DNA of 64,000 nt, taken from positions 1,240,001 to 1,304,000 of the forward strand of contig NW_026250407.1 in the NCBI RefSeq assembly GCF_024521635.1. The letters are read 5' to 3'. Positions 36,557 through 61,480 of this stretch are shown piece by piece (the first letter of the stretch is position 1; every line of letters begins with the position of its first letter). The stretch comes from Tricharina praecox (taxonomy: Eukaryota). The position numbers were made by a program, and so were the translations under genes. Under the pieces are notes generated by a model. That model did no database searches and had not been told where the DNA came from. It saw only the letters and a program-made list of their open reading frames with translations.

Positions 36557-39113
36557 GTACCCATCGAGTCATCGAGCCATCCAGCCATTGAGCCATCCAG
36601 CCATCCAGCCATTGAGTCATTAATCAATGGACGGTACCGATCGTGCTCATCGAGTCATCGACAGCTTTTCTCCTCCATCTGGAAAAGTATATACATCGCA
36701 GGCTCCGAGCAGCTAGTTCAACTGCAGGTGATCGATCAATGAAGTCCACCAGTGCCACCCACCACCCGAAACCTTCCAGTGAACTGTGAGGCACATTCGC
36801 CCGGGTATGCCCACTCCCACGATCGAATCCGTTCAAACAAACGGAAACGGAAACGGAAACGAATACAGCCGGATGCAGCTAGTCCTACCGTAGAGTAGAG
36901 TACTTATCAACTCGGGCGGGCCGCTGGCTGATGAATGTCTACCGTACCATAGGTATTACACCCTGCGGCCTGTCGTCCGGTCTGTTGGTCCCGCTTTCGC
37001 CCGCACCACTCTTGAGTCTCGCGCCAGAGATAGGCATGGTTATGGGGAACGATGTGCTCGCTGCCGGACGAATTGCACGGTGTATATGATTAGGTTGTGA
37101 TCCTCTGGCACGCCCTAAAACTCTACGGCGGAAGCTCTCCGCACCGCTGCACACTCCATTCGCCGCGGCCACAGCCCGCACGTCCGGTCTCGCCACTATC
37201 TTCTCGGCCCAATGAAGTCAACGACGAGCTAGGAAACAATCAGAAACTCGAGGCGATCACCCCACTCCCCCCACCCCACTTCACTCCACTCCTTCTGGTC
37301 CGAATCGATTCAACTAAACTCGGCGGCCGAATGATTGGTGATGCTGCGGTGGCACCTCTCAACGGCTACGGAATCGAATGCAGGTGGGTGGGTGGCTGGA
37401 TTGATGGTACGCTCCACAATCGATAATCGAACATCAAACCACTGGTGCTGTTATTGACCGACTAAGTAACGCTACTGCTAGGGTGGTGGGAGTGGGGTGA
37501 GGACGTGCGGTAGGATAGTAGGTATAGGTGATGAGGAGATTGTAACTTTCTGCACAGTACATCACTCGCTGCAAAGACTGGAATGTGTGTTGGAATGTGT
37601 GCACAAGTACCTATTGTATTGTTTGAGTCTGAAAGCCTCGAGAGAAGACAGAAAAGACGGGTGGTAGTCGGCCAGTGCGGCAGTGCTTCACACCGTCATG
37701 ACCACGAAAGCGACTAAGCAACGAGTGAGATATTACAAGAATGTGGGTGGGATATCACTCGTTCTGCGGAAGTAAGTAAAAAGTAGGTAACTGGTCGTGG
37801 GGCGGTATTTGGAGCAGCCAGCTGTTGACAAGCGGCACACCCTTGGAAGAGTCACCCATTATACGGACGATTAACAACGACGCCCCGGGCCCGGCTAAAA
37901 GTACGTCATTCAGGCACGGAAGCACATCGCCACTCTTCGCCGAAGAGAGCCCGAGATCACCATCGAATCTCAGGATCAGATCATCTGATGGCGGCCGGCA
38001 TACAAAGGCGTCCCCGGAACGAGATGGTAACCGAATAAGCGGCACCTCCACCACCTCCACCACTACCACCACCGGCCCGCCAAGTTCCAACTTGGAGACT
38101 GATCTAAAAGAACAAACGCAAAACTCAAGGATTTATTTTTAAGAGACGCCGAATTCGGACCCCGCACATGATGATTATCACTAAGCCCTCCTTCACATCC
38201 TCATTTTGCATTGCCTCCGAAAAGCTTCCTCGTTCCGCTGTCTGTGTAGAGCTCAGTGTATTAGCTACATGTCCTACGTCTTGTTCGGTGGTAGTAATCG
38301 GTGACATACCTGGTAAATTTACTGCTGGAACGGCGTTCCCACCCAGCGTGGAATCCACCGCAGTGTCGTTAGTTTCCACAGCGCCCATGCGCTTCGCTTC
38401 CCCCCCCCCCTCCGGTCTCTAGAAAACATTCCTATTCTCAAAGGAAACTAGGAGCTCGTAGCTCTTTGGGTCCGAAGATTCCCTGGTGAGTTCGGCAGGT
38501 GAAGGACCGACCTGCTGGTATAGTCTCGTTGCCCCCTTCTTCCAGCAAGAAATTTAGAACAACAAGTCAGGACATTACCTCAGTTGTAGATGCCCAGGAA
38601 AATGGGCAGTTCTAGGTAACCAGCCTGGAAAATGTGGCAAGTGTAGTGTCCACGGCGTGACCGCGAGAACCTAATGGTTGGTTAGCTACATAAGCCGCGG
38701 CAGTGATACCAGTTGAGTGGCAACTTACTACTCTGAAGCGCAGGGGGAAATCATTCCCCCCGCTGTGGATGTGGTTCCCGGCGTGTTGCCGGGAAACGTC
38801 GCCGTGCCGCTGCGGCGGCAGGGCGAGCGGGCGCAGCCCGTGAGGATCTGCGGGAACTCTGTATCCCGACGACAATCCTCACATACGTCCCCGAAGGGAG
38901 GGGGCAAAAATGATTTACCCCGGCTGTGGGCGTCGTCCCCGGCTTGTTGCGGAGAAATCCAGTCTTGCTTCGCGTTCCCCTCCCTCCAAAGTCCAAACAC
39001 GCCACAACGTTTCCCTTCTCGAAGGAAACCGGGAGCTAGTGGAACATAGGGATGGAAAACGCCCCGGTGAGTTCGGCGAGGGAAGGCCCAAGGGCCAACC
39101 TGCTGGTGTTTTG

Positions 39114-40570
39114 CCTCCCTTGCCTCCTCCCCGACGCTTCCTAGTCCCAGTCCCGTTGTCTGTGTAGAACCCAATGTATTAGCTGCATATTGATGGGACA
39201 GGCAGAGATTTCGAAGCAATTGTTGTGGGTTGGATACCAACTGGCAACTTACGTCCCCGAAGGGAGGGGGGGAAACTATTCCCCCCACTGTGGTACGTTC
39301 CCCGAAGGGAGGGGGGAAATCATTCGCCCCGATGCCGGCGCGAACCCCGGTTGGTTATCGGCAGCGACGACGGGCCGCGGCTGCGTATAACGGCCCTCAT
39401 GGGGCTGGTCAGTGGCCGCTGAGACGCACTCAGACAACATCTGGTCGAACTGGTTGGTTAGCTACATAAGCCGCGGTAGTGATACGAAGTGGCAACTTAC
39501 CTCCCCGAAGGGTTGGGGGAAATCATACCCCCAAAGCACCCCGATAGCAAAGTCGAAACGATTCGGTCGATCAAGAAGTAGAATTTCTAATCCGGGTGTC
39601 GTCTACTTCTTGTTGCGGACCCAGCAGGTCATGATCGGCGGGCGCTGCGGGCCATCTCCCATGAGTGAGTCGGCCTGGTCCGCGGGGGTAGCATCACTAG
39701 TGGCCCTGCCCTTGCCACGCATCTTGGGGGTCTGCTTCTTGAGGAGGCGGTGGATCGTGTCCATCTATTCAAGAATAAGGTTAGTCAATATTGAGAGGAA
39801 AGAAGAAGAGAATTATCACCTTCTCCTCTTCCAGTTTCTGGTCGGTGAGGTTCTTGCGGCGGCGAGCCATTTCAGCCCTCCTGAGCTCCTGCCCTTGGGC
39901 AGAGAGCGTCACCGCCTTATTGGCGCGCGGCTTTTCTGTCCAGAAGTCAGTAGAGAAAGTCGAACCAGAAACCGGATTCATACCGAAAGTACTCGGGAGC
40001 TCCAGCAGTTCTGCGGTGGTGATGTCTCCCATTCTGGTGAGCTGACGGTTGGTCAAGCGGCTCATGTCTGGCGTACCAGTCCTGCTCAAAAGTTGGGGGT
40101 GGTTCCATCGTCATCGGAATCCATCAGCTCATCGTCGGTCTCCCCTTCGGCATCGTCGTCTCCGTTATCATCGTCGTCGGATTCTTCCTGGATGATCTTT
40201 CTGCCACGGGGGAAACAATTCCCCCCACTGTGGTAAGGTCCCCCGAAGGGAGGGGGGAAATCATTCCCCCCGATGCCGGTGCGATCCCCGGCTAGTTACT
40301 GGCAGCGTCGACGGGCCGCGGCTGCGTAAAACTGCCCTCATGGGGCTGATGCTGGCCACTGGCCGTTTGGTGAAATTGTTGATGGTGGCTAATGTCGATG
40401 TTGATGTATGTGTTGAGGATAGCGAGAGGAGAGAGAGCGGAGAGGGGGAAGAGAGGAGCCTTTTATAAGAAAGTGGGTGCGGCTTGGTGCGGACTGTGTC
40501 GCCGGTGCGGCTGGTGCGAGTTGGTGTGGCCGGTGCGGAGCCCGCATCCCCACACACGCTGGAGAACTAG
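39114..40570 (-). repeat. Left arm of ~1.45-kb inverted repeat (partner 57928-59381)
   Basis: The reverse complement matches 57928-59381, and the mirrored ORFs are identical apart from a one-codon indel and few substitutions. Confidence 0.95.
39603..40203 (-). pseudogene. IES2: Fragment of INO80 subunit Ies2 (PAPA-1 domain), copy in element A
   Basis: Mirror of 58295-58892: RRAEMARRRKNLTDQKLEEEK|intron|MDTIHRLLKKQTPK. Confidence 0.8.
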
Positions 40571-40784
40571 GTAACAGTGTCAAACTTTAGTCGGCCACAT
40601 ACGTCGGCACGAATAAGGTTTCGTGGTGGAAGGTCGAAACCGAGTCTTGACGGCCGCGACGAAGTGTCGACGAGCATATGGTTACGCGGCAGCGGCGAAC
40701 TTTAGGCGGCACTTTAAGAAAGCGGGTACGACTTGGTGTGGCTAGTGCTGATCTTGCATCTCCGCACGAGAACTAGGTAACAGT

Positions 40785-41289
40785 AGGTACATACCTCGAG
40801 CGTCGAATCCTTCATCCACCACATCAGATTTGCGTGCAGCTTCGCAGTTCGAAACCTCCATGGATTATGGATACCGACCAGTCCCCCTTCCAGCTTGACA
40901 CTGTGAAGGTACCTACATACTACATAGCCCGCCGATTATTATCTTATCTTCTCACCTCACGATTTGGCCGGCTATCAAGTAACATACTACCTACATGTAG
41001 GCGGGTATATTGTCTTTTTCGCCGTGTGCCTTCACTGGCTCTCACTCGCCACTCTACTCTACACACCCAGGCCCCTAGTCCAAATCCAGTCCCGTCCATC
41101 ACTATCACCATCGGCCAACTGCGATCCACCCGGCGGCGTGTGGAGTGAACAGATGAGCAAGTTTATTTCTCCCCTTTTTGCCGCCGACGTATGGTGAAGA
41201 TACCTGGATAGAACGGTCATTTATTCCGCATCCCTGACAGACAGCGGAAGAAAAGAAAACGTGCTCAAACGAGCGCATTGAATTTTGTA
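40785..41289 (+). repeat. 505-bp direct repeat, copy 1 (partner 57213-57717)
   Basis: Appears identical at offset 16428; ORFs 40834/57262 and 40964/57392 are identical. Confidence 0.95.
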
Positions 41290-41822
41290 CTGCTTGGCGG
41301 TTGGGTGTGGTGGGGCCGGGGGATGTCGGTGGGGACCTAGAGGGGGGACTCTGGATTGGGGCTCAAATTTGCACGAACAGCCGCTGCCGGCGGAACGTTT
41401 TATTTCTATGTCTTCGCTCGCCAAAGTATACTGCACCGACTCCGGGCAGCCCTATGTACGTCCGTCCGACGCCACGTCTGGCATGCAATGCTTACATACA
41501 TACACCTGGATGAATTGCATCCGTGGGAGTAAAAGAAGTTGCATTAGGCACCTAGTTCGGTATTCCTATTTCAACTAGCCGGCAATTACCGGTGAGATGC
41601 TGGAGGGGAGGGGGGACGCATATGCGCTGGTTTCGTGCGCATAAACACGACCGATTAGGCTGCTATTCGAGCTCAATCGACCGCGACCCTCAACCCTCAA
41701 CCCGCGCAGATAGTCTTTGAATGGTCGGCCAAATATATTCCCACGACTTCCCCGGCAACCTCGTAGACTTGCATCCGTCCGTCACGACAAACCAACGACC
41801 ATCAACAGCAACAATAACCGAA

Positions 41823-43804
41823 ATGAGTCTCCACGACCTATCGGAACGGCACTCGTCAACCCACACGGGCGGGGATGGCAAAGGGACCGGAACCTGGCAC
41901 TGGGGATACGGCTGGCAAACAGTGCCGTGTGTGGGCGTCGAGGCGTACTGTGGGTACATGGATTTGTACTTTAACATGCACGATCTGACCATGCTATACA
42001 CGTACGTACCTGCGGTTGTTTGTCTCCCCCGTGGGGTTGGATGCAACTGACATGGGGGGTGTGATCAAGGTTTTTCCTGTGGTGGGTTGTCGCTGGCCTT
42101 GTTCTCGCGGTTGGGGCGTTACGATTCTGGGCGAGGAGAAAGAGCGCGGCTGGGACAGTGGATGTGGAGGGTCGCAGATGTGGAAAAGGAGGTGTGGTGA
42201 AGGCGCTCCGTGCGAGTATTGTCGCGGCGAGGAGGAGGGGACTGAGGCAGGGGTTTTTACTGGGGACGTTTAAGGGCGTGACGAGGGTTCAGATCACGGT
42301 CTTGGTTATGGTGGTGATATACCTTGCTATATTCTCGTTTGTGCCCCGATTATTCTACTCCAGCGTGGAGTAGTACCTACCGATGGCTGAACGTTGCGAG
42401 GACAGTTTCATCGGCGGGACGTACAACAAAGTAATCCAGGAAGCTACAAAGAAGCGTACCGAACTCGGCTGGTGGTCTAATCGGGTCGGCTCGCTCGCCT
42501 TCGCGCTGACGCCGCTGACACTGATCCTCTCGATGCGGGAGAACATCTTCTCGCTGATCACCGGAATTCCGCACCAGCACTTCAACTTCATGCACCGGGT
42601 CCTTGGCTGGATCATCTTCGCACAGAGCCTTCTTCACACAATCGGCTGGACAGTCGTGCAGGGTTACTTCTTCGAGCCACAGACGCAGCCGCAGTATCTG
42701 GCGATCCAGTGGAAGGAGCGCTACTACAAGTGGGGGTTCGTCGCGCAGATGCTCCTGGCGTTTCTGTGGGTCGGGAGTCTATCCCCGGTCGTGCGGAGGA
42801 TCGGCCACGAGGCGTTCCGGAAGAGCCACTATGTCCTAGCCGTGTTGTACCTGGGCGGCTGCTGGGGCCACTGGCCGGAGATGAAGGAGTGGATGATTGC
42901 CAGTATCGTGGTGTTTTTTTTCGATCGCGGGTGCAGGTTTCTCCGGATCACGCTCATTCACTGCGGGATGAAATCCAAGACTGCCGGCTTTGGGTTCAAG
43001 TACGCGGCTGCTAAGACCGTGACGGAAACGGACGCCGATGGGACACATGTCGTCGTGTTGAGACTCCTCGCGAAGCCGCTGCACTACGTTCCCGGCCAGC
43101 ACTTCTTCCTCACGTTCCCGAGTATCACCCTTCTACAGTCGCACCCGTTCACCCCCGCTGTCGTCAATGGCCACGAGCAGGTGTACGTGATCGTCGGGAT
43201 GGCAGGAGAAACGGGCCGATTAGTGGAAGCGGCACGAGCCGGAAGTGAAGGGGGACTACCAGTGATTCTATGTGGACCGTACGGTTCCCCGCGGGTGATC
43301 GACAATGGCGCGGAAAACTTCCTACTCGTGGCAGGAGGAACAGGAGTATCATTTACACTTCCCCTACTGGCGGCTTTGGTCGAGAAGAAGACAGCCGGAA
43401 AGCTCCACTTCGTGTGGATCATCCGCCGACTAGAGAATCTGGCCTGGATCCGTGCAGAGCTATTAGCATTAATCGATACGGCACTCAACAGTAAGCTTAC
43501 GCTTCAGGTGGTTATTTATATCACCAGAGATGGCGAGGCGGTGGCCCCGACGTTGAGCGAGACAGATAGTACGCATGGACTGGAGAAGTATGCTGCCTAT
43601 GGCCGTCCTATGTGCAAGGAAGTTGTGGCGGCGTTTAGGGAGAGTACCGCTGGTGGCGGTAGATCCCAGGTGCTAGCAAGTGGGCCTGCAGGAATGGGGA
43701 GGGAATTGAGGGACGCAGTCGCAGAATCAAACGACGCAGCGAAGGTGTGGAGGGGTCAGGAAGCGTCGGATGTGGGCCTGTACTGGGATAGCCGGTATTG
43801 GTGA
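41823..43804 (+). CDS. Ferric/cupric reductase-like transmembrane flavocytochrome (FRE/NOX family)
   Basis: Heme His pairs (HRVLG...LLHT; SHY...WGH), HPFT FAD motif, GPYG, AGGTG NADPH motif. Introns ~42002-42069 and ~42336-42405. Start is ATG 41823 (alternative 41721). Confidence 0.88.
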
Positions 43805-45155
43805 GGAGTTTGGGATTTTTCTTTTGGACTCTAGTTTAATGCTGTGATGACGGATTGCGGGAATTCATTTTGTGTCGTGGAGACAATGCGAACTACGAAG
43901 GTACCGTGAACGTAGCAGATCGGATGGCCATGGGTTTTTGTTGTCCAATGAATAGAAACAGTGCTTTTTCCCACTGTATTCCTCACTCGTTGTGAATACC
44001 CAGCCAAAGCCTTCATCCAAACATGAAATCTCACCCACTTTTAGATGCCATTCGCGCAGTTCGTCTCCCTTGCATCACCACGTCGACCAGTAACCCGCCA
44101 CCCAGAATTGGACACGGCTGAATGTAAAAGGATAAAACAAAAAACCACTATCTAGCCATCGAGCCTAGGTTGGAGACAACGTGGACAAGAAATCATCTTG
44201 ATAAATTGCAACTTTCACATTATAAATACAGGTGGGGTAATAATATGTAGCTGTTAACCATCGGTGACCGAGGCGCGCAAGTCCGCCACGAAAAAGAATA
44301 TAACACAATCTAGAGAGATTCGGGGTTTGGGAGCACGAAGGTGGGTGATGGACAGAAGCCGCTTGTGGCTGACAACCGTTGATGGACCTCCGCTCGCGTG
44401 GCGTTCCCGATACTTGGGCAAGCAAGGCAGTTTTATAGCACAGTCGGGCTAATGATAGCCTAAACGTACCAATCCGAATATTCATGGTCAGGCGCCACGC
44501 TTGGCCTCAAAAGTCACCGTCAAAATCAAGTCATCTGTGCCCCTCGCTGTTTCTAGAACCCATATCGTCCGAGGATAAGCTTCTGACAACGACCAAGATG
44601 CAGCATGCAGGGCGATGAGATGAGCGAAGTCGCACTGCCTGAGAAGAAATGCGGAGTGTAGCTGCCTTGGAATAGGTATTCCCCGGTGTACCAATACTGA
44701 CTGACAACATCTTTGCATAGCCCCCCATAGGTACCCGACTGTAGCCTGGGAGTTGACAATGACAAAATCGGAAGGTATCTGGGTTCCAAGAGCTGCTCCT
44801 AGAGTTCTTCACAGACTCCGTCTCTCGAGATCTAGGGATTTGATCCTGTACTGATGGTCACGTAAACAGGTAAACAGGTATTATCATTCGGATTGGACAG
44901 CATCGGAGGAACCGGAGGTAGAATTGCCGGTGATTGTCCAAGATCATCCTAAGTAACCTATATTCCCCCGATAGCGAAAGCAATAACTGCCGGACGCGCG
45001 TGTCCCTTTTGTGTAGCAAACTATTCGAGTAGTCAGAGGCGTCCAGAGCCGAGACGAGAAGCCAAAGCCAAACTCACCCGAAAGCAAAAACCATAAACGC
45101 CAGACTTTTTTGCCGTGCAAACGACAGAACGCGATTCCGCCTCTTTTTCCTCCGC

Positions 45156-45464
45156 TCACATCCCTTTCAATTGATCCAGCAAGTCTTCGACGTTCCCGCT
45201 CTTCTTCTTCTCTTCCTTCTTATCCACGGCCGAGTCCACCTCCATATCCTTCGTCGGCTCCACAAGATCAAACTTTTTGCCGCTTTTCCCACTAAGCAGT
45301 CCCTCACTCACAAGGATAGTGTCCAGGTCATCGGCGAGCAGCGAGTTTTTGTGTTTGATAGATTTAGCACTAGCCTTCGACTTCTTGTTGACGCGGGCGT
45401 TGTGAGTTCTGGTGGATCCAAGAGCCGCGGAGAACTTTTGCGGAGCGGTTTTGCGGCCGGCCAT
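45156..45464 (-). CDS. Small hypothetical protein (102 aa), basic N-terminus and acidic C-terminus
   Basis: Clean ATG-to-stop ORF with protein-like composition; family not recognised. Confidence 0.6.
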   Translation of the reverse strand: MAGRKTAPQKFSAALGSTRTHNARVNKKSKASAKSIKHKNSLLADDLDTILVSEGLLSGKSGKKFDLVEPTKDMEVDSAVDKKEEKKKSGNVEDLLDQLKGM

Positions 45465-48056
45465 TGTGCGATGCTGTGAGTGAGATTGGTGCCGCGTTGG
45501 TGAGGTGAAGTGGGGTGTAACTTAGAGTGGGAGGCGTAGCAAGTCCAGTTACACACGCGTGACGACAAGCTTTGGCTGGCCAAGACCACTAGCTTGTGGT
45601 TAGCGTGAACCTAAGATTGGAGCTATTTAGCGAGTGAGATTGTGTGAGGCTTCGTGTTTTTGGTTCCGGAGGCTAGTTAATTAACAAGGCACGCCTCATA
45701 GTTTCGAGTATGGAGAAGACGGCAGTCAGGTCCCAGTCGCAATATATCTACCTCGGCATGGCCATTTGCGCATTCATCCCAGCCACATGTGCTACAGCTA
45801 CGATTTCAATATGCATTCCGCATCAGCAGCCAAGGTGGATTTCACTCATGGTGGTATTTCGTGAATCCACAGTTGAGAATGATGCATGCATGCAGATCGT
45901 TTTCGGAGCCTCGGCACTGACAAAATGTGCCGTCAACACCCTATGGGGTGGTAACTGAAGACACTTCAGTGGCTGAGTGAAAGAACTGACATAAGTGGCA
46001 GAGTGTCTCTCCGATATCACAGCTACCGCCTAATACAGTAGTTCTAGGGCTACTATATACTATGACAGTATTAGACGTTAATCTGCTCTCGTAAATTCTG
46101 GACATTGGTACACTCAGGCATTTGCCTACTCTCAGTTCAATATGACTTTCGAACATTCATTATCATCTGTTTGGTGAGCTCGAGTTGACAATTATTCCTC
46201 TTTATAGGTTCTATGATATATTTCTCCATATGCGATATGAATTATGTCTTTAGAAGTCAACAATCTGCTGGATATACTCTACTGCACGAGTGAGACCTGT
46301 GAGGCACATACTTTGAAGAGCCGTCCGCCAGCCGTCCTCCAGCCGCGGCCAGCCGCGGCCAGTTTCTACGTGCATATCTTCTGGAAGCCAAATTCCCGAT
46401 CTTCTCCGCCACAATTTTACGTATCCGGCATTCCATTGCTGGTCATGAGGTCCTCAACTAGGAGCTGAAGCGCTGTGTCGATAACCGCAGCGATCCACTG
46501 CCAAACTCCCCCGCTATTGATATTCCTACAGGGCCCAGCGATACCGAATATAAACTAAGTATATACGGAGATATAGGCACATAAGATATGTACATGGACG
46601 TTGGAGTCCGGTAGTGGATGTCCCGCCATTCCCATGCCTGTTCCGGAGTTCTGGGTAGGATTATAGTAGCTGTGCATATGGTTGTGGAGAAACCCTGTAT
46701 AATAACGTCCTACTCTAGTGTAACCCCTCCCCAAAAAGCAGATGAAAGTTTTAGATACAGACGTCGCTGGCTGGAGGGACCATCGGGCTTTTTCCGCGTC
46801 AGGAACTAAACTGTTAATATGTTCGGTTGTGGAGGCTGCGGCGACCGAGTGATTTCCAGTGGAACGCTGTCCTCCGGCCTCAGATGACGAAACGTCATGT
46901 GTTGGACTGCGCAATCGGCGACAAAGCGACGATTCGGACCTGCATCCAGCCACTATCTATATTAGTAGTCCCGATCTCCGACCCACACCAATCTCTGTAT
47001 GATGTCTCATCCCGCCCAAGACCTGACCTCGGATTGCAGCATCAGAACGTTCCTAGCGTATTGGAACGTGGTTGGGACAGCGGTAAACATGACGCCCAGA
47101 CAAGTGTTTCCTAACCCGAGGAGACCTTTCCTCAATGACCGAGCGAATATCTAGCACCTTGTACGAAGTCTCTATATCTGGCTTCTAGGTCAGTCAATCA
47201 TGCCCCGCACATTGACGTGGATTTCCCCACCATGGTGGCCGCAAACCCTAGATGATCGGAATTCCTCATTGCAATTAATCGCATGCCAGAGTAATTTTTC
47301 CTATACATCTCATTGCTCAACAGCTGACTGATGATGCCTCGAGATGCGACCTACTGATGGACCGCCGCAGTATCGAGCCCCGCCATTTCTCTGCATTCAC
47401 CAACGGAACGGATTTCGTTTTCGCTTTTTCCCAGTGGGGCTCCCGGATGGTCGGTGCGCGGTGGTGATCTCCGAAAATACATAGTGAACCCAGGTCGCGG
47501 GGATCGACAGGGGGCCGTGACCGGAGCTTTTTGATCCCCTGATCTCCCTGTTAACTTTGATGATATGTATCGCGCCGAGGTTCTTTACCCTGCACTCACC
47601 GTACATCACCCACCCACCCTTAACGAGAAACAAGATGTCTTATCCAAATCCTTCAGATTAATACCTACGATATCGAAAAAACCATTCCCGGATCGACGAC
47701 ACCACAAGGATCCATCTTGCGGGGAGAGTGCACGGTGTCACCGAGGCTCACGGTAGCCGTCGCCTACGTTTGAGGGCTTTGCTTGCGGCCGGTGATATTG
47801 ACCGACGCCGAAGCTGGGGGGGTATGAAACGTACCTTTACCAGATCGCAAGGCTTTTGCAATATGTTTTTTCTTCTTGGAGGCGATAAAATTCAGAGAGC
47901 AATACATAAACACAGACGTCCACCCGGTTGGATTTCTGGACGTCAAGCGGATCTGCCTGCCTTCCATTCATTCTCTTGTTTGTCCATTCACTCCTTAGCA
48001 TTTGTGTTTTCCATCGAAAGATCCCGGTGATATTGATTCGGCTATCTAGTGCCATC

Positions 48057-51000: not shown

Positions 51001-51082
51001 TACCATGCACCCGCTCATGCCTGGACATGATGGTACGCCGCATCCGATTATGGGTATCTCAAGGACGTACATCGGACCGTAG
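48057..51082 (+). CDS. Secreted FAD-linked (BBE/VAO-type) oxidoreductase fused to a C-terminal putative copper-monooxygenase-like domain
   Basis: Signal peptide; NSGHDFLGR, DLFWALRGGGGSTFGVV, AYVNEA...FWGTNYAKL..IKTKYDP. The same exon runs without a stop into a domain with WLHHMV, GNERT, GHVHDGG and HPIMG. Introns 48473-48532, 48772-48827, 50525-50581. Confidence 0.85.
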
Positions 51083-51178
51083 GGTGTGGGTTGGGGGTAG
51101 CGGGGCTGTTGAACAGCTGGTTGACATTGAGGTTTTGATATTTCTTTTGTGTGACTGGAATTGATTGGCATTCGAGTT

Positions 51179-51209
<31 letters not shown>

Positions 51210-51785: not shown

Positions 51786-52554
51786 TCATAAACGTTCGTC
51801 ATAGACGTACGATCTCGGTCTCGGGCTCCTGGAGCTCCTGGAGTGATGTCCATGGCTCCTCCTGGCACGGCGGGGGCGCTCGGGGTAGCCCGCCGGATCG
51901 GTGTAGACCTTCTCAACGACGGGGGCATCCTCGATGACGACGGTGCGGTTCTTTTCCATCTCCTGTTCGTTCTGCTTGCAGACGACGACGGCCAGGATGG
52001 CGGTGATGAAGAACATGATGATGTTTGCGATGGCGAGGCCCCACGCCGCCTTGATCAGATTGCAGTTGTTGGGGTTGTCCGAGAAGTCCGTCCTGTTGTC
52101 GGTTGCGGTGCCCGTCGGGACTGCGGTTATGCGCTGCCCATCGGACGTGATGAACACCGTCTGCGTCGTGCTCTGCCCGACCGCGTTGCATTCGTAGTTG
52201 GCGATGTTGGAGGTCGTCGCTACGCCCGCGATCAGCGCGCCCATCGCCACGATGTCCCAGAAGGCGATCCACAGGGCGGTGTTGCCCGCGCGGAGGACGG
52301 CGATCAGGATGCAGAAGCTCCAGACGGAGGCGAGGAGCGTCACGATGAAGAGCGTCAGGACTCCGCCGGGGGTGTCGATGTTGTTGCCGTTGTACCTGCG
52401 AGTCTGTCAGCGTTGAGAACGTAGGCCAATGGGACGCTGCGGTCGTGACTTGCCAGCTGACCACTGCGGCCATCAGGGCCCATGCTGGAATCAGCGTCAG
52501 GATCTGGAGGACTCGGAAGACAGTGTGGGCCTGGCCGGCGCCTTCGTTTGCCAT
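51786..52554 (-). CDS. MARVEL-like four-TM membrane protein
   Basis: FRVLQILT..., four hydrophobic helices, CNLIKAAWGLAIANIIMFFITA. Requires the GC-AG intron 52396-52453. Confidence 0.85.
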
Positions 52555-53784
52555 GTTGTCTGTAGTAATCGACGTTTCAGAACTCGAGATGTCTGGCGAT
52601 GGAGCGAGCGAGCGAGCGAGCGGATGGATGTCGATTTCGTTATTTGAAAGAGCTGGGTGATATGTAGCACACGGCTGACGCTGCTAACCAAGCAAGTACG
52701 GTATACGGTAGTGCGTATGTATGAGAACGAAAGCACTTGCTGTTCCTCGCGCCGGGCCTTCTTAAAGCTCTGCCTCGCTCTCGATTCGGCTGCTGTAGGA
52801 CGGCCTGATTTTCGACAGCTGCAGCACTACAATCCGATGACGTCGTTTTGACGATACTCGCAGTATACGGCAGGGAACCCCGGCCCCGGGCGTTTCAATC
52901 TCTACCTGCCGACGATGCGCTGGAAGAATCCTCCGAACCCGACCGATTAATAAATCCCACATGTGTAAACGAAGAAAGAAAGACAAAAAAGACGTGTGCG
53001 GGGTTTCCGGATGTTCTCAGATCCGCCGCTGCGCGAGGAAGGTCGGTTTCGTGGGGACGGAAATAGGAACGGTACATACGTGATCGCACCGCGCAGATCA
53101 CTCGTGCGAAAGCAGGACAGGATATACCTAGGGTACCGGGTGACAACTGGCTCGGCTAGGTATAAAGTATCCTCGTCGTCACATGTTGGCTTTGAATTCA
53201 AGAGGCTGGACAGCGGAGACGCAGCAGAGCCGACGCTGTCGGAATGTCCGATTGGATTACGATGAGTCTGAAATGATGATCGACCTTAACCAGGCCAGGC
53301 GCGAGCACAGTAACCACGGCACTCTATTCCAGTAGAGCCGCCTATGTATAGTACTGTGCTCTGAGTAGTTTATCCACTCTACCGAATCTTCTCTCCGCAT
53401 TACTCCCTTACTGAGCTTTCGTTAACGGCTGACGAGTCCGTACGCACAATCGAGCCGATTGCCAGTACGTCGGAGAATCTTATTTCTGACGTCAAGCTGA
53501 ACTCCTCCGCCGTACCTACTATGTACACACGACACGCTAACAAAAACTGCGGCTGGAACCTTCTGTCGGCCTTCGCCGGGATGGTATGTAGTTATGCCGG
53601 TACTCTATTCACCGTTCACGATGGTGCGACGTCAATCGCGGGAATGCGTGATCCCGCGCCCAACCAACCCCTCCTCGGGATCGGTGCGGTTCTGGGGGCC
53701 GAGGCGTCTTTCTGATGGGCTTAGTCGTCTCGAGACCCGAGACTCGGGTCTGTTCGCACATGCAGTGACCGCAGGTTTATAGCC

Positions 53785-54321
53785 TAGTGTCAAACTTAGT
53801 CACGCGGAGAGGTCGGTACGATTAAGGTTTCGCGCTAATTGGTCGAGTCTCGACGGCCGCGACGGAGTGTCGACGAGCATATGGTTACATACGCAGCGGC
53901 GAACGTTAGGATGCACCTCAGTCTTGTATCTATATGAAGAGATGCCTTACCGCTGATGATAGGTTTTTGGCTGTATTGAATCAATTATCTCTGTTGTTCT
54001 GTCTATATATTTCATCACCCAGCAGATCACTCCAAAGAACAAAAACCTGTGGATGGATTACTAGAAGCATGTAAGCATTCCTTCGTCGTCACAACAAAAT
54101 CACTGCAACGGAGCGGGGGGAACGGGCGGTGCGTGTTTGCAAGGCAGCGCTAGCAGTAATAGTTTGGAGGCTAGGTTGGCGGAAGCCTGGCTTGTGCCGC
54201 GGAGATGGGTGGTACGGCGGGAATGTGCTGCGGCGATGCGTGACTGCCGTTGTCGACTTGACGAGAAAACTTTGCAGGAGAACATGGTCACAAGGATAGC
54301 GTTGGGTGCGCGGTTTGCCAT
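53785..54321 (-). pseudogene. Degenerate segment containing the element 'upstream module', inverted relative to copy B
   Basis: 53785-54020 is homologous to 40576-40715 (same strand) and 60155-60350 (opposite strand). A short ATG-initiated ORF starts at 54321 and stops interrupt the frames downstream. Confidence 0.4.
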
Positions 54322-54379
54322 CTTTTACGAAAGCTGCAGTTTTTTGTTCGCCTTTCGGTCGTCTTGGTTTGCTGGTTCC

Positions 54380-55710
54380 GAGTTCCTCGGCGTGTGCGGG
54401 GATGGGGGGGGTTGCGGGGATGCGGCCTCAGTACCGGCCGCACCGACCGCACCAAGCCACACCCGCCTTTCTTATAAAAGGCTCCTTTTCCCCCCCTTTC
54501 TTATAAAAGGCTCCTTTTCCCCCCCTCTCCGCTCTCTCTCCTCTATCTATCTCTCCTCAACATAGACATCAACATCAACCACTATCAACAATTTCACGCA
54601 ACGGCACTGGCCAGCCCCATCAGCCCCATGAGGGCAGTTGTACGCCGCCGCGGCAGGAAGATACTTACTCGCAACAATCCGGGGTTCTCAACCACAGCCG
54701 GGGCAAATAGTTCCCCCCCTTCGGGGACGTCGGCCACGTAAGTTGCCACTTAACGAGTATCACTGCCGCGGCCTATATAGCTTAGGTGAAGCCGACGCTT
54801 GCTGCCTGTACTAGAGAGATGTTGACCAAGAGTTAGGAATTAGAATGATTACGCCAACTACTCCCTACGTCCTAGGGTTGGCCCAATCCCCGCAGCAAGA
54901 ATCTTCCACTTGCTCTCCATCACCGCCATTAATCTTCCACCGGTGACCTTCCAGTGGTTTTGCCCGATGTCGAGGTGCTTGGAGGGAATGATTTCCCCAT
55001 CCCTTCGGGGAAGTAAGTTGCCACTTAGTATCACTGCCACGGCGTATGTAGCTAACCAACCATCAGGTTCTCGCGGCCACGCAGTGGACCTGGCCAGTTT
55101 GCCTGGCAAGGTCTGCGTTTGCGTCGGGCTCGCGGCTTACGGCCGCTTGCCCTGCCGAAACGATATTTCCCGGCAAATTGCCGGGGTATCGCACCCACAT
55201 CGGGGGGGAACTATTCCCCCCATCCCTTCGCGGATGCGGATGTAAGTTGCCACTTAGTATCACTGCCACGGCGTATGTAGCTAATCAACCATCAGGCTCT
55301 CGCTGCTGATAAGTGGGCCTGCCAGTTTTCCTGGCAAGGTCCACGTCTGCGCCCGGTTCGCAGGCGACTTTGGGCTTCGTGGGCTGGCGGCCGTGGGCTT
55401 TCTTACTTTGTTGGAGCGCTTCAGCGTCTGGTAGAGAGCTGGGTGGATACTGGAGATATGCTAGATTGATGATGAGGAATACAATGGTCTTGAACCGTTG
55501 GGGTGGGGTGCTGTCGTCTGGATAATCTCCATGTTCGGGGTCCGAAGTCGGCGTTTTTTGAAAATAATTACTTGAGTTCTGCGTTTGGTCTTTTAAATCA
55601 GTCTCCAAGTTTGCGGGGTGGCGGTGGTGCCACCCATTCATCGGCCTTCTCGTTCCCGGAGACGCCTTTGTGTGCCGGGTACCATCTGATCTCGATGGTG
55701 ATCGGTCTGT
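54380..55710 (+). mobile_element. Modular gene-fragment-carrying repeat element, copy B
   Basis: Leader with tandemly duplicated TATAAAAGG (54473, 54502), palindrome+intron units (donors 54738, 55013, 55242) and tail module ~55400-55700. Confidence 0.65.
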
Positions 55711-57006
55711 GTAATCGACAGTTCTGGGAGTTGTGGGTCAGCCGCGCGCGTTAATTTCAATGATAATCTCAGGTTCGGCGATGTCTTTTCGTGTCTCGAT
55801 GGCGTACTTCTGGCCGGGGCTTGGGGTGTCGTGGGTCAGTCTTGAAATTGCCACTTGCACCTCTGTGTTGATGGTGACTCGGTCAAGGGTATACCGCCGC
55901 TCGGCCGCACAATTCGCGATCACATCACGTCTTTGGAGTGGCGCCAGTACCTTACCGTGGTGGAGTCTATTCCCCTCAGGTGGCGACCGGCCGCAAAATC
56001 TAGATAGGTAAACTACACTAATGACGAGTATCGGTCAGTGCCGGTGATATTTTTTTAGCAGGCGTACCGCTTGTCGTGGTACCGTCTGCGCACGGCGCCA
56101 TACTTACAGTACTGCGCAGGAAACAGTGGTACAGTACCGCACTGCCCGGTATCAGCGTGCCTCGCCATGACGCCGGTGCGGAGGGTAGAGGGTTAGTCAC
56201 AGACTGGGAAAACCCGCGCCGGAGGAGAGACGCTGTACAGCGTAAGACTGGTCGGTTCGCCACGGCCTGCACATACTCATATCGGTACAGCCAGCGGTAC
56301 CGTTTCCTTCCTGTTCAGTGGGCGGTGGATCTACTATCCATAATGCTCATATCGTAGTCACGAAGGAATCTACCACGTCCTAGGTACATACCAATGATGA
56401 TGGTGGAGAATTGGTCTGCTTCATGTATCACTTGTTCGAGAGTTTCTAACCTATCTCACCTGAAGCAAAAACATTAACAAGTCACCACATAAGCAATTAA
56501 CCCGTGTTTTGCATCTTTCCATACTTCATAAAGTGCCAGAATGTACGCAAGGAGCCTAGATCAGATGAATTGATGTTGTTGGTGTTGCTTGGTACGGACT
56601 GTGTCAGATCACGGCGTCTGGAGGATATGAAGGATCTCTCCTCATGTTCGCTGTAAGGCGCTGGCAATGGTGATTTTTCAAGGAGCACTATTTGAAGGAG
56701 TCAAGGACTCAGCCATGCGAACTTTATCCGGAGGAGGAAATTTGTTCTGGTTTCTGATCTCGCCGGCGTGTCGATCTCCAAATGGCAGACATATTCTGCA
56801 TATTTAGAAGGGTACCGGGCCCGGAAAAGAGGAAGCAAGCAATAAACAGTTACATCTTCCTACATATCCTCCTGTCGAACGTAGTATATTTGACGGACGG
56901 GTATGTGCTACATTACATCTTTTAGGATTTAGGACTGTCGTGCCCTGTCACAGTGCTTTCGAATATGTACCTAAGTAATTCTTCAGCTTGTGCGCGGATG
57001 GGGGCG

Positions 57007-57084
57007 TGCGGGGATGCGGGGATGCGGGGATGCGGGGATGCGGGGATGCGGGGATGCGGGGATGCGGGGATGCGGGGATGCGGG
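57007..57084 (+). repeat. (GCGGGGAT)n tandem expansion, ~10 units, of a leader motif
   Basis: Directly visible. The same 8-mer occurs once or twice at the start of leaders B, C and D. Confidence 0.9.
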
Positions 57085-57212
57085 GAATCTGGGCTCAGCA
57101 CCAGCCGCACCAAGCCGCACCAAGCCACCCCCGCTTTCTTGAAGTGCCGCCTAAAGTTCGCCGCCGACGCGTAACCATATCCTCGTCGATACTCCGCAGC
57201 CGTCCAGATTCG

Positions 57213-57717
57213 AGGTACATACCTCGAGCGTCGAATCCTTCATCCACCACATCAGATTTGCGTGCAGCTTCGCAGTTCGAAACCTCCATGGATTATGGAT
57301 ACCGACCAGTCCCCCTTCCAGCTTGACACTGTGAAGGTACCTACATACTACATAGCCCGCCGATTATTATCTTATCTTCTCACCTCACGATTTGGCCGGC
57401 TATCAAGTAACATACTACCTACATGTAGGCGGGTATATTGTCTTTTTCGCCGTGTGCCTTCACTGGCTCTCACTCGCCACTCTACTCTACACACCCAGGC
57501 CCCTAGTCCAAATCCAGTCCCGTCCATCACTATCACCATCGGCCAACTGCGATCCACCCGGCGGCGTGTGGAGTGAACAGATGAGCAAGTTTATTTCTCC
57601 CCTTTTTGCCGCCGACGTATGGTGAAGATACCTGGATAGAACGGTCATTTATTCCGCATCCCTGACAGACAGCGGAAGAAAAGAAAACGTGCTCAAACGA
57701 GCGCATTGAATTTTGTA
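57213..57717 (+). repeat. 505-bp direct repeat, copy 2
   Basis: Appears identical to 40785-41289. Confidence 0.95.
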
Positions 57718-58030
57718 TTGACACTTTTATCTATCTCCTCACAACTGCGGAAATCTCGCCCTTGGAATAGTTGCTGATGAACAAGTTTTCCTCAGTGTCG
57801 TCACATAGGGTAACTGTTCATCCTCAGCCACTTATCCAATCTCAGATAATAACCTGCAGGAGGGTAGAGGTGAGGGCGGGGGGGCGGGGGGCGGGGGCGG
57901 GGAAGCCCTAAATTTCCGGCCGCGTGACTAGTTCTTCAGCGTGTGCGGGGATGCGGGCTCCGCACCGGCCACACCAACTCGCACCAGCCGCACCGGCGAC
58001 ACAGTCCGCACCAAGCCGCACCCACTTTCT

Positions 58031-58039
58031 TATAAAAGG
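58031..58039 (+). promoter_or_regulatory. TATA box (TATAAAAGG) in the conserved element leader; also at 54473, 54502, 60501 and 40467-40459 on the minus strand
   Basis: Consensus TATA followed by a CT-rich tract and a CA-rich UTR-like stretch ending at a conserved CCCCATG. Confidence 0.6.
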
Positions 58040-58294
58040 CTCCTCTCCTCCCCCTCTCCGCTCTCTCTCCTCTCGCTATCCTCAACACATACATCAACAT
58101 CGACATTAACCACCATCAACAATTTCACCAAACGGCCAGTGGCCAGCATCAGCCCCATGAGGGCAGTTTTACGCAGCCGCGGCCCGTCGACGCTGCCAGT
58201 AACTAGCCGGGGATCGCACCGGCATCGGGGGGAATGATTTCCCCCCTCCCTTCGGGGGACCTTACCACAGTGGGGGGAATTGTTTCCCCCGTGG

Positions 58295-58892
58295 CAGAAA
58301 GATCATCCAGGAAGAATCCGACGACGATGATAACGGAGACGACGATGCCGAAGGGGAGACCGACGATGAGCTGATGGATTCCGATGACGATGGAACCACC
58401 CCCAACTTTTGAGCAGGACTGGTACGCCAGACATGAGCCGCTTGACCAACCGTCAGCTCACCAGAATGGGAGACATCACCGCAGAACTGCTGGAGCTCCC
58501 GAGTACTTTCGGTATGAATCCGGTTTCTGGTTCGACTTTCTCTACTGACTTCTGGACAGAAAAGCCGCGCGCCAATAAGGCGGTGACGCTCTCTGCCCAA
58601 GGGCAGGAGCTCAGGAGGGCTGAAATGGCTCGCCGCCGCAAGAACCTCACCGACCAGAAACTGGAAGAGGAGAAGGTGATAATTCTCTTCTTCTTTCCTC
58701 TCAATATTGACTAACCTTATTCTTGAATAGATGGACACGATCCACCGCCTCCTCAAGAAGCAGACCCCCAAGATGCGTGGCAAGGGCAGGGCCACTAGTG
58801 ATGCTACCCCCGCGGACCAGGCCGACTCACTCATGGGAGATGGCCCGCAGCGCCCGCCGATCATGACCTGCTGGGTCCGCAACAAGAAGTAG
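58295..58892 (+). pseudogene. IES2: Fragment of INO80 subunit Ies2 (acidic region plus PAPA-1 domain) with retained intron
   Basis: DDDAEGETDDELMDSDDD...SRTGTPDMSRLTNRQ...RRAEMARRRKNLTDQKLEEEK|intron 58676-58730|MDTIHRLLKKQTPK...MTCWVRNKK*. Frameshift near 58408, stop at 58890-58892, no N-terminus. Confidence 0.82.
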
Positions 58893-59443
58893 ACGACACC
58901 CGGATTAGAAATTCTACTTCTTGATCGACCGAATCGTTTCGACTTTGCTATCGGGGTGCTTTGGGGGTATGATTTCCCCCAACCCTTCGGGGAGGTAAGT
59001 TGCCACTTCGTATCACTACCGCGGCTTATGTAGCTAACCAACCAGTTCGACCAGATGTTGTCTGAGTGCGTCTCAGCGGCCACTGACCAGCCCCATGAGG
59101 GCCGTTATACGCAGCCGCGGCCCGTCGTCGCTGCCGATAACCAACCGGGGTTCGCGCCGGCATCGGGGCGAATGATTTCCCCCCTCCCTTCGGGGAACGT
59201 ACCACAGTGGGGGGAATAGTTTCCCCCCCTCCCTTCGGGGACGTAAGTTGCCAGTTGGTATCCAACCCACAACAATTGCTTCGAAATCTCTGCCTGTCCC
59301 ATCAATATGCAGCTAATACATTGGGTTCTACACAGACAACGGGACTGGGACTAGGAAGCGTCGGGGAGGAGGCAAGGGAGGTTAAACGAGGATGTGAAGG
59401 AGGGCTTAGTGATAATCATCATGTGCGGGGTCCGAAGTCGGCG

Positions 59444-59572
59444 GAGACTCTAGAGAGTATGGCCACCCTTGCCAAGGCTCTTGCTGCCAAAGACTACAAC
59501 ACCGCGGGTAACATCCAGGTGAATTTGTTGACCAACAAGACCGCCGAGTGCACACAATGGATGACGGGAGTC
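59444..59572 (+). pseudogene. SEC31: Fragment of the COPII subunit Sec31 C-terminal domain
   Basis: ETLESMATLAKALAAKDYNTAGNIQVNLLTNKTAECTQWMTGV resembles the conserved Sec31/SRA1 C-terminus, and it is absent at the homologous site in copies A, B and D. Confidence 0.72.
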
Positions 59573-60109
59573 ATCTTGAAAATAATATCTTGATTTCTGT
59601 GTTTGTTCATTTGAATCAGTCTCCAAGTTAGCGGGGTAGTGATGGTGCCGCTCATTCATCTGCCTTCTCGTTCCCTGGGATGTCTTTGTGTGTTGGGCAC
59701 CATCTGATCTCGACAATGGTGGGTGGAGGACAGTCGAGAGTCGATACCTTCATACCTGCATTGTACGTTTTGTCCGATTAACACCTCACGATCAGGTAAG
59801 TACCTACATACACACCTCCATAATACTTCTCACTTGAGCAAAACTTTTTTTGTTTAATCAGTGATTGCTTGCGACCTATGTAAGTATGTAGATCATGACA
59901 AGATATTTACACACTCCGGTTCCACGTCATTGCCCAACCCGATAGTCATCAAGCGGCCCAATGTGAATTTCACGCCCTCCGGCTCGGCCTGTCCTAGCTA
60001 CGAAGACACTTCTACGTAATCAAGTAAGTAGGTACCCGCTGGTTAATCCCTCCGCATATCGTCTGCGATTCACCACCATGTATGTATCTAAAATAGAACC
60101 CGCCTACCA

Positions 60110-61480
60110 GTCCTGCCCTGCCACAGTGCTCTTGAATATGTACCTACTGTTTGTTGAAATATATGGATAGAACGACAGAGATAATTAATTTGATACAGAA
60201 AAAACCTATTATTAGTGGCGAGGCCTGACTTTACATACGAGACTGAGGTGCCGCCTAAAGTTCGCCGCCGCGTAACCATACTCGGTCTCGACATTCCACT
60301 GCGAAACCATATTCGTGTAGACATCTCTGGCCGACTAAAGTTTGACACTGTTACTTTGCTCTTCAGCGCGTGCGGGGATGGATGCGCACTCAGCACCGGC
60401 CGCAGCAAGTGGCACTGGCCGCAGTAAGTGTCACAGGCCGCACCAAGTCGAACCGGCCGCACCGGCCGCACCACGTCGGAGCCAAGCCGCCCCGCTTTTT
60501 TATAAAAGGCTCCGCCCTCTCCGCTCTCTCCGCTCTCCCCTATCTCTCTCCTCAACACAGACATCATCATCAACATCAACCACCATCAGCAAACCCAGCG
60601 GCCACTGGTCAGCCCCATCAGCCCCATGAGGGTCGTTATACGCAGCCGCGACAGGAAGATACTTCCTCGCAATAATGTGGGGATCTTACCCACAGCTGGG
60701 GAATAATTTCCCCCCTCCCTTCGGGGACGTAAGTTGCCACTTAACTAGTATCACTGCCGCGCGGCTTATATAGCTAGCCAACCATTCCGATCAGCTCCTG
60801 CACAATCCCCACTCCGGAGAAAAATTAGAATGATTACGCCAACTACTCCCTCGTCTCCGGGGAAACGATCCCGAGCTCCGCCTTTCGCTCTTCGCATCTG
60901 CCGTCCGAGGACTCGATGCGTACCGCCTGAGAATTGTTCGACCTCCTGGAGTTGGCCCCATCCCCGCGGCAACAGTGATGTCGTCCGATGTCAGGGTGCT
61001 TGGGGGGAATGATTTCCCCCATCCCTTCGGGGAGGTAAGTTGCCACTTAGTATCACTGCCACGGCGTATGTAGCTAATAAACCATCAGGTTCTCGCAGCT
61101 GAGCAGTGGACCTGCCAGTTTGCCTGGCAAGGTCCGCGTCTGCGCCCGCTTCGCAGGCGACCTTTAGCTTCGTGGGCGGGCGGCCATAGAATATCTTGCT
61201 TTGTTGGAGCGCTTCGGCGTCTGGTAAAAAGCTGGGTGGACACTGGATATTTGCTGGATTGATGATGAGGAATACAATGGTCTTGGACCGTGGGGTGGGG
61301 TACTGTCTTCTGGATAATCTCCATGTTCGGGGTCCGAAGTCGGCGTTTTTTGAAAATAATTACTTGAGTTCTGCTTTTGGTCTTTTAAATCAGTCTCCAA
61401 GTTTGCGGGGTGGCGGTGGTGCCACCCATTCATCGGCCTTCTCATTCCCGGAGACGCCTTTGTGTGCCGGGCATCATCCG
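60110..61480 (+). mobile_element. Modular gene-fragment-carrying repeat element, copy D
   Basis: Upstream module 60110-60360, TATA at 60501, donors at 60729 and 61035, and tail module 61190-61480 closely matching 55400-55690. Confidence 0.65.

Follow-up and report, generated by a model that had tools for sequence, protein, structure and literature searches.

A palindrome-rich, non-coding mosaic repeat family carrying IES2 and SEC31 gene fragments in a 64-kb stretch of fungal DNA

Introduction

What is a sequence that is built like a gene from its TATA box to its tail, occurs in several copies within a short distance and carries pieces of other genes inside? This question is raised by four loci, here named A, B, C and D, in a 64,000-nucleotide (nt) stretch of Tricharina praecox DNA (contig NW_026250407.1, positions 1,240,001 to 1,304,000; in the following the window, in which all positions are counted from its first letter). 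An earlier note, made from the letters of this DNA, had described the four loci and offered two readings: a non-autonomous, gene-capturing transposon, or a transcribed and spliced leader-repeat-spacer array that stores host sequence and could template small or antisense RNAs. In this work we show that the repeat family is real and unusual and that it carries genuinely captured gene fragments; the interpretation as an RNA store was unsupported. We tentatively favour, at somewhat less than even chances, a lineage-restricted (Pezizales-like), non-coding and unclassified mosaic repeat family, which would have arisen by local multiplication, reshuffling and a repair-driven uptake of gene pieces.

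Results and Discussion

Grammar of the repeat family

Repeat finding and self-BLAST confined the family to four loci, locus A on the minus strand (~37.98–40.77 kb) and loci B (54.38–55.70 kb), C (57.93–59.71 kb) and D (60.15–61.48 kb) on the plus strand. All of them follow the same module order: a GC-rich upstream stretch leads to a TATA 17-mer and a CT/CA leader, then come a short ATG frame and the palindromes with short introns, and a tail common to all copies ends the unit. Three diagnostic motifs were counted in the 64-kb window on both strands and all were found far more often than expected by chance: the intron-start 14-mer with ten copies against 0.31 expected (up to two mismatches), the TATA 17-mer with five against 0.08 (up to three mismatches) and the tail 15-mer with four, all of them exact although up to two mismatches were allowed, against 0.09. 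Every one of these copies lies inside the loci A–D, clustered at two places 13 kb apart and within 23.5 kb, and the remaining 40 kb contain none. The four loci with a shared grammar that had been described at about these coordinates are thus confirmed.

The 5' side consists of two modules. Module P is GC-rich and promoter-like and ends in the invariant TATA 17-mer; the optional module U (~130–250 nt) lies upstream of it, and both start with the same hexamer after different upstream sequences. The extent given before for the units was about right, with the correction that the family reaches further in the 5' direction, as module U is present at 60152–60350 and 40580–40743, partially at 57098–57212 and inverted at 53780–54017. 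The following leader is CT-rich first and CA-rich after, and its ATG is located in the loop of a small GC hairpin. Each unit has at least one palindrome module, composed of an 18–21-nt palindrome (G-run, A, loop, T, C-run) and a C(TTCG)G mini-hairpin. The tail shows an invariant AAAATAA in all copies and is closed by a 5–6-bp hairpin in A, B and C, not in D.

Directly after the mini-hairpin a type-1 intron of 51–54 nt can begin, with GTAAGT, a CTAAC or CTAAT branch site and YAG. From seven distinct copies five keep the 5' site, the branch site and the YAG; in the first copy of B and of D the branch site is degenerate. In A and C there is also a second type of intron (type 2), which measures 93 nt in C and has a conserved 3' end of its own. 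By a loose pattern we found 16 G-run/C-run palindromes in the loci, to which one at position 54981 was added by eye; the same intron start follows within 45 nt in nine of the 16, or ten of 17 (~59%) if the latter is counted. The loose pattern also matched three unrelated small palindromes outside the loci at 29.9–30.7 kb. The earlier statement that the palindromes are mostly followed by the same intron therefore holds for these ten of 17, with two intron types instead of one.

The invariant positions of the family are the TATA 17-mer, the context of the ATG, the 5' end of the intron and the AAAATAA of the tail, which, read from the sequence, would be the hallmarks of a unit transcribed by RNA polymerase II (Pol II). 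In length the family introns correspond to those of the organism itself; the two introns of the IES2 piece described below are 48 and 55 nt long.

Two small features were observed next to the units. Their AT-richer flanks (59780–60150, 56900–56975 and 40780–41000) repeat a short GTACCTAC/TAGGTAC-like motif, and a 37-nt piece just upstream of family modules is common to 56937–56973 and 60110–60146 (89%).

Relations among the copies

The four loci are real, but two of them do not count as independent copies: A and C share 1463 nt at 99.4% identity in inverted orientation, yet their tails are only 66–80% identical. Within the shared part they differ by an in-frame 3-nt insertion or deletion (indel) and scattered substitutions. 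In locus A ~900 additional nt are flanked by two copies of one intron-end/exon repeat, and from this arrangement C looks like A after a deletion between these repeats, or A like C after a duplication. Loci B and D are collinear with a very uneven identity: the spacer reaches about 50%, no more than unrelated flanks do, and the values are 76% in the leader, 84–87% in the exons, 96–98% in the 54-nt intron and 97% in the tail. Internal duplications were found as well, namely an extra palindrome-intron-exon unit in B (85% identical to its neighbour), a 29-nt duplication of the TATA region in B and the ATG module of C, which is present twice (90% identity over 141 nt). B, C and D follow each other head to tail within 7 kb.

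A block of 505 nt is 100% identical at 40785–41289 and 57213–57717. Its orientation does not change between the two sites, in spite of the inversion of the adjoining units of A and C, and it interrupts module U at the C site; it may be a separate element, a part of the rearrangement or an effect of the assembly. We therefore also considered a partial assembly artefact, in which a metagenome-derived contig with mis-joined repeats gave rise to the A/C block and the 505-nt block. The contrast between identities of 99.4% and 100% and the far more diverged family sequence next to them, and the opposite relative orientation of the 505-nt block and its adjoining units at the two sites would fit to it, but the in-frame 3-nt indel and the substitutions between A and C argue against a perfect collapse, and we regard such an artefact as very improbable. 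The family itself does not depend on A and C, because B and D are independent and diverged copies.

Families of locally duplicated genes or pseudogenes that are homogenised by ectopic gene conversion are clustered, occur in both orientations and show a patchwork with sharp boundaries and internal tandem duplications. The loci A–D resemble them in their clustering, in both orientations, in the patchwork of near-identical and diverged parts and in the internal duplications, and they differ in that no intact parental gene is visible in the window and that the units contain foreign gene pieces and dense palindromes. The mosaic identity is the pattern that local duplication, unequal recombination or crossing-over and ectopic gene conversion would be expected to leave.

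Captured gene fragments

As already proposed in the earlier note, pieces of the housekeeping genes IES2 and SEC31 have been captured. The IES2 piece (a subunit of INO80) was identified by two matches to the Pfam family PAPA-1 (PF04795) at 58388–58711 (E 1.1e-6) and 58731–58889 (E 3.8e-6), and the profile positions 2–25 and 26–74 join exactly across a 55-nt intron at 58676–58730. Because the profile continues across this intron, the piece must have been copied from genomic DNA and not from mRNA. In comparison to the IES2 of a close relative (P0016) it shows 23/25 and 36/42 identical residues, in two different frames. It is truncated at the 5' side, has an internal deletion with part of the acidic region missing and carries a frameshift near 58390–58410. 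A search resulted in 14 homologues; the best named relatives are seven species with 51–68% identity, and further proteins reach 83–93%. Three of these seven could be confirmed as Pezizales by taxonomy look-up, and the remaining four we take to be Pezizales as well. This points to a host that probably is a Pezizales-like ascomycete.

The SEC31 piece at 59444–59573 shares 42 of 45 residues with residues 929–973 of a 984-amino-acid PF07304 protein (P0005), while its own match to PF07304 stays below the cut-off (E 1.4e-4). With its 130 nt it interrupts the tail of C only, and the tails of A, B and D are continuous there. As it is present in one of four tails it was inserted after the copies had diverged, and relative to the family the insertion appears to be very recent.

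Both pieces are in sense to the TATA box of their unit and both abut palindromes. Judging only by the protein sequences of relatives, the 5' junction of the IES2 piece lies in a C-run that the parental codons also contain. In A and C this piece occupies the place that spacer s1 has in B and D, and since the A/C block is a 99.4% duplicate, it represents one capture event and not two. No more than two capture events can be identified, IES2 (A and C) and SEC31 (C). In the other spacers and flanks no recognisable gene piece was found: among 100 six-frame open reading frames (ORFs) of at least 30 amino acids, which covered spacers as well as flanks in A, B and D and the flanks in C, a single one gave a Pfam hit at E ≤ 0.01, which was below its cut-off.

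These data bear directly on the idea of a leader-repeat-spacer array in which host sequences are recorded and serve as templates for antisense or small RNAs. Conserved modules do alternate with variable segments and the IES2 piece does sit at the position of spacer s1, as such an array would have it, but with no more recognisable content than IES2 and SEC31 a store is not supported. Moreover, the repeat units are irregular in order and spacing, the SEC31 piece is located in the tail and not between repeats, and no associated protein genes were found in the window. The suggested antisense role is not supported either, because with both fragments in sense a transcript from the promoter of the unit would not be antisense to the host mRNAs. 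We consider this explanation to be the least probable of all.

In antisense direction the IES2 fragment with its introns, as well as the palindromes, is crossed by an open frame of 280–281 codons (58265–59104 on the minus strand and 39391–40233 on the plus strand); it has no Pfam domain.

Coding capacity and RNA structure

The leader frame ends in the palindrome loop after 26 codons in A and C (MRAVLRSRGP...GE) and in D (MRVVIRSRDR...GE), the peptides being as quoted before, and continues for 37 codons in B. In five of the six pairs of the four copies 2–5 synonymous changes stand against 10–16 non-synonymous ones; the exception are the two copies of the ATG module inside C with five of each kind. 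The indels between B and D are not multiples of three. All 114 ORFs of at least 130 amino acids in the window (106 in one scan and the other eight, which lie inside the loci, separately) were scanned for domains, and the long ORFs of the loci showed no Pfam domain. Neither a transposase nor a helicase domain was detected in any of the 114, so that the absence of a transposase and of a conserved ORF, both noticed before, could be substantiated. A protein-coding gene family would have a conserved frame under purifying selection, and none was found.

Two further ORFs were considered and rejected. One runs antisense through the tail and is open in all four copies, without a start codon in A. About one residue in three differs between B and C (by eye), a divergence as expected without selection, and a protein search yielded 13 candidates, none of them at E ≤ 0.001. 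For the ORF at 54844–55242 four matches (E 2e-7 to 2e-4) were obtained among 1.84 billion representative sequences; all are long repeat proteins matching on one short stretch and were judged to be spurious.

With respect to RNA, no match to Rfam 15, which includes small nuclear RNAs, small nucleolar RNAs (snoRNAs) with U3, telomerase RNA and microRNAs, was found at E up to 5 in 53700–61700, and in the whole window nothing reached the gathering score except for a 5S rRNA. No tRNA or tRNA-like features and no telomerase RNA template were seen in the family loci. In comparison to shuffled sequences the palindromic exon of B folds much better, with z −4.5 on the plus strand and z −5.8 on the minus strand, and the better fold of the opposite strand is what is expected for plain DNA palindromes. 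The tail appears unstructured (z −0.45). RNAalifold with seven aligned palindrome modules predicted 12 pairs, two of them with double changes, and a covariation term of +0.67, a result of low power with so few related copies. Palindromes that are 25 nt apart can form a stem of ~19 bp according to the predicted fold. A role of the palindromes as selected RNA hairpins is not supported by covariation.

Some single elements were tried as well. A hairpin upstream of the main palindrome is a perfect palindrome in only two of seven modules and was dismissed as a conserved feature. Box C-like motifs in the last exons of B and D pointed to a C/D snoRNA, a candidate that we dropped as no box D is found at a fitting distance (by eye) and Rfam gave nothing. 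A putative Sm site in the tail is not kept in A or C.

The loci might nevertheless be an expressed and spliced family of long non-coding RNA genes, in which the palindromic exons or the 54-nt intron and the tail are functional, for example as Dicer substrates giving microRNA-like small RNAs, and the gene fragments are passengers. In line with it the best-kept parts are exactly the TATA box, the splice signals, the AAUAAA-like motif, the 54-nt intron and the tail, with the spacers at ~50%; the intact splice signals in most distinct type-1 introns, the possible stem between paired palindromes and the fold of the palindromic exon can be added. The missing covariation, the better fold of the opposite strand, the unstructured tail and the empty Rfam search speak against it, and a patchy gene conversion accounts equally well for the uneven identity. 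We rate such RNA genes as unlikely, with perhaps one chance in five.

A variant of this reading combines both aspects: Pol II-transcribed, spliced hairpin-array RNA genes, whose paired palindromes would yield small RNAs while the same palindromes would be prone to take up pieces of host genes. We give it only slight credence. Should it be true, the loci would be heritable and evolving precursors of small RNAs, which might in time target housekeeping genes, IES2 and SEC31 among them, via antisense strands made by an RNA-dependent RNA polymerase, and thus a eukaryotic, repair-driven analogue of a spacer-acquiring locus.

Comparison with mobile elements

The strongest rival among the mobile elements is a non-autonomous rolling-circle (Helitron-like) family, which would have taken up a host promoter, 5' exons and introns and a 3' end, later also IES2 and SEC31, and would be moved by an autonomous Rep/helicase element elsewhere. 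HELPO of Pleurotus is reportedly a fungal non-autonomous Helitron with gene fragments. FoHeli of Fusarium oxysporum is another one, and in the passages of PMC5148889 that we draw on fungal Helitrons are described as lacking terminal inverted repeats (TIRs) and as having oriented genomic captures, head-to-tail runs, 5' modules in several copies and a hairpin at the 3' side. Comparable features are seen here. No TIRs were found in B or D, the loci lack coding capacity, the captured fragments are genomic, intron-bearing and in one orientation, B, C and D are nearly in tandem, the modules U and P with their common hexamer resemble the multiple 5' termini of Fusarium Helitrons (same passages of PMC5148889), and the shared tail has a 5–6-bp hairpin at its end in A, B and C. 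Unlike in Helitrons, no Rep/helicase partner is present in the window, and neither a CTRR nor an ATTTT-type terminus was recognisable by eye. From the four clustered copies no shared sharp termini, no 5' TC and no preferred insertion-site dinucleotide could be made out. The homology is lost before the hairpin in D and right after it in C, and A and B stay similar for ~150 nt beyond. The 5' side is a variable stack of modules, the only copies are four clustered ones, and no copy was found in three scanned collections, which hold little or no fungal DNA. The backbone also differs, being a complete gene-like unit with TATA box, introns, poly(A)-like tail and arrays of G-run/C-run palindromes. In sum a Helitron origin seems possible, though rather doubtful, with a chance of about one in four.

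Transposons with TIRs can also transduplicate genes, as stated in the cited part of PMC6710886 for Pack-MULEs in plants and for histone H3 copies borne by hAT elements in Dothideomycetes. They share with our family that sequence of a host housekeeping gene is copied into a repeat, multiplied with it and decays. They have TIRs and target-site duplications, whereas an inverted-repeat search (seed 8, minimum 14 nt) in 59950–61700 and 53700–56000, covering D and B, found no TIRs, only internal palindromes pairing mutually, and the copy number here is four and not tens to hundreds. A Pack-MULE or another TIR transposon is defined by its TIRs, and none were found in B or D. Long terminal repeat retroelements and terminal-repeat retrotransposons in miniature differ as well, as no unit carries a second copy of the promoter/leader module at its 3' end.

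The near-identical short introns recall introner-like elements, which are proliferating near-identical introns (PMC3609843 and PMC4457414, both cited in part), and the symmetrical sister (stw)introns of Hypoxylaceae (PMC8469720, likewise in part). Common to both and to our family is a short canonical intron in near-identical copies (ten starts in the window) next to hairpin-forming sequence. In contrast to them the family intron is copied with its flanking exons and sits in a non-coding repeat instead of being inserted seamlessly into unrelated protein genes, and the palindrome belongs to the exon in front of the 5' splice site and not to the intron. All ten intron starts are found in the four non-coding loci and none in the other genes of the window. 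Since the intron travels with its exons, the family does not belong to the introners.

No description of such a family in Pezizomycetes was found among the titles and abstract openings of the open-access literature that we searched, and we provisionally call it undescribed. One scan of prokaryote genomes and two of viral contigs, collections in which fungal DNA is not expected, gave no matches. The intron pattern matched two loci in metagenomes, one AT-rich and one in long open frames, both without any family motif and therefore regarded as chance matches.

Proposed origin of the family

For the reading that we tentatively favour, a lineage-restricted, non-coding mosaic repeat that grew locally, the following course is conceivable. 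One ancestral transcription unit might have been the source. Every member has the build of a Pol II gene from the TATA box to the AAUAAA-like tail, with a short, unconserved upstream frame, exons that consist for the most part of GC-rich palindromes, and introns of ~50–93 nt. Its copies would have been multiplied on this chromosome arm by segmental and tandem duplication and reshuffled by unequal recombination between internal repeats and by gene conversion. The palindromes could act as points of breakage or fork stalling, and in the course of repair, through template switching or through filler-DNA synthesis at sites of short homology, genomic pieces of other genes may have been inserted (IES2 together with its introns, and the 130 nt of SEC31). 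Directly observed are the grammar of the modules, their mosaic identity, the gene fragments and the lack of coding capacity, whereas the mechanism of duplication and repair is inferred, and so would be any transcription or splicing of the units.

Several points weigh against this course. Unrelated genes (ferric reductase, BBE oxidase) lie between A and B–D, and the units occur in both orientations; local duplication alone explains neither. The gene pieces lie in sense, B, C and D follow each other head to tail, 5' modules occur repeatedly, and A, B and C have a 3' hairpin; these are classic rolling-circle features, and by this analogy a rolling-circle element could equally generate the family. 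The 54-nt intron and the tail are kept far better than the exons, which could reflect function rather than conversion. The microhomology at the capture junctions was read from protein alignments of relatives only and not from parental DNA, and the 100% and 99.4% duplicates could partly be an artefact of the assembly.

What the family means depends on its nature. Should it be able to move, then Pezizomycetes would have an unclassified gene-capturing element; their genomes are large and repeat-rich, and we found little literature on capture by transposons in this class. If it only duplicates locally, it would be a natural example of palindrome-rich DNA driving the shuffling of modules and the insertion of gene pieces, and if it is transcribed and spliced, chimeric RNAs would result in which parts of two housekeeping genes are present in sense, from units with an intron that is better conserved than their exons. 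For genome annotation the units can be misleading: gene callers may be deceived by their TATA box, ATG and introns and by chance ORFs, which reach 280 codons.

Features of the loci

The modules of the four loci and of the partial members are listed in Table 1. In the partial member upstream of C the 5' motif of the promoter-like module has grown into an 8-nt microsatellite with ~12 copies of a G-rich unit (56991–57094).

Table 1: Coordinates of the modules in loci A–D and of partial family members.
Locus	Feature	Position	Strand	Remarks
A	common tail	37983..38206	-	aligns with the tails of B, C and D; 71% to B, 66–80% to C, 69% to D; tail 15-mer 38089–38103
A	internal block absent from C	38207..39107	-	palindrome modules 38921 and 38761; one type-1 intron copy from 38728; GTATGT intron-like site; 84-nt repeat 38425–38508 / 39006–39089 (71%); second copy of type-2 intron 3' end and following exon; no Pfam domain in six-frame ORFs
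A	block inverted relative to C 57928–59387	39108..40570	-	99.4% identity, 1463-nt alignment; TATA 17-mer 40455–40471, leader, ATG frame, palindromes, IES2 fragment, type-1 intron, second ATG module, type-2 intron
A	module U (40580–40743), preceded by TATA-less promoter-like module P' (~40722–40770)	40580..40770	-	matches 60248–60454, 57098–57212 and 53844–53910
Partial	solo inverted module U	53780..54017	-	370 nt upstream of locus B
B	GC-rich upstream stretch, duplicated TATA 17-mer (54469–54485, 54498–54514), CT/CA leader	54383..54627	+	
B	ATG frame, 37 codons to 5' splice site; palindrome 54700–54719	54628..54737	+	
B	type-1 intron copy, degenerate branch site	54738..54785	+	
B	spacer s1, homologous to D spacer	54786..54978	+	only ~50% alignable; no Pfam match
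B	palindrome, TTCG mini-hairpin, 54-nt type-1 intron 55013–55066	54981..55066	+	GTAAGT, GCTAAC, CAG
B	palindrome-rich exon 55067–55241 (palindrome 55202–55221) and third type-1 intron 55242–55295	55067..55295	+	
B	last exon (X–Z) and common tail 55521–55695	55296..55695	+	invariant AAAATAA; hairpin near end; tail 97% to D
Partial	member upstream of C: TATA-less promoter-like module, then first part of module U	56975..57212	+	cut off by the 505-nt block
C	GC-rich upstream stretch, TATA 17-mer 58027–58043, leader, ATG 58157, palindromes 58227 and 58272	57928..58290	+	frame from ATG 58157: 26 codons, stop inside palindrome loop
C	IES2 gene fragment, sense	58291..58950	+	introns 58512–58559 and 58676–58730
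C	palindrome 58963 and type-1 intron 58995–59045	58951..59045	+	
C	second leader-end/ATG module (ATG 59095), palindromes 59165 and 59209, type-2 intron 59243–59335, following exon	59074..59381	+	
C	tail part 1	59382..59443	+	97% complementary to A 38147–38206
C	SEC31 C-terminal fragment, sense	59444..59573	+	inserted in tail
C	tail part 2	59574..59713	+	
D	module U 60152–60350, GC-rich stretch, TATA 17-mer 60497–60513, leader	60152..60625	+	TATA 17-mer with 1 mismatch
D	ATG frame (26 codons), palindrome 60698, degenerate type-1 intron copy from 60729, spacer s1, palindrome 61002, type-1 intron 61035–61088	60626..61088	+	
D	last exon and common tail (61313–61481)	61089..61481	+	

Genomic setting

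The window has a GC content of 0.49–0.64 per 2 kb and appears as ordinary fungal nuclear DNA. Its genes code for a RING-variant protein, an MFS transporter, a zf-MYND protein, CLN3, a chitin-binding protein, a multicopper oxidase, a DUF7514 protein, a ferric reductase and a BBE/FAD oxidase. The 5S rRNA match mentioned above is located at 61941–62088 on the plus strand, 460 nt downstream of locus D, and scores 45.5 bits against a gathering score of 38; compared with the model it contains one insertion of 14 nt and other small ones, so that a variant or a pseudogene may be present. A stretch of 259 nt at 29636–29894 is 79.5% self-complementary and forms a long imperfect palindrome unrelated to the repeat family. 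Two tandem repeats were observed in addition, an array with a period of ~40 nt and copies of 74–85% identity at 18689–18946 and a perfect 6-nt repeat at 36464–36555.

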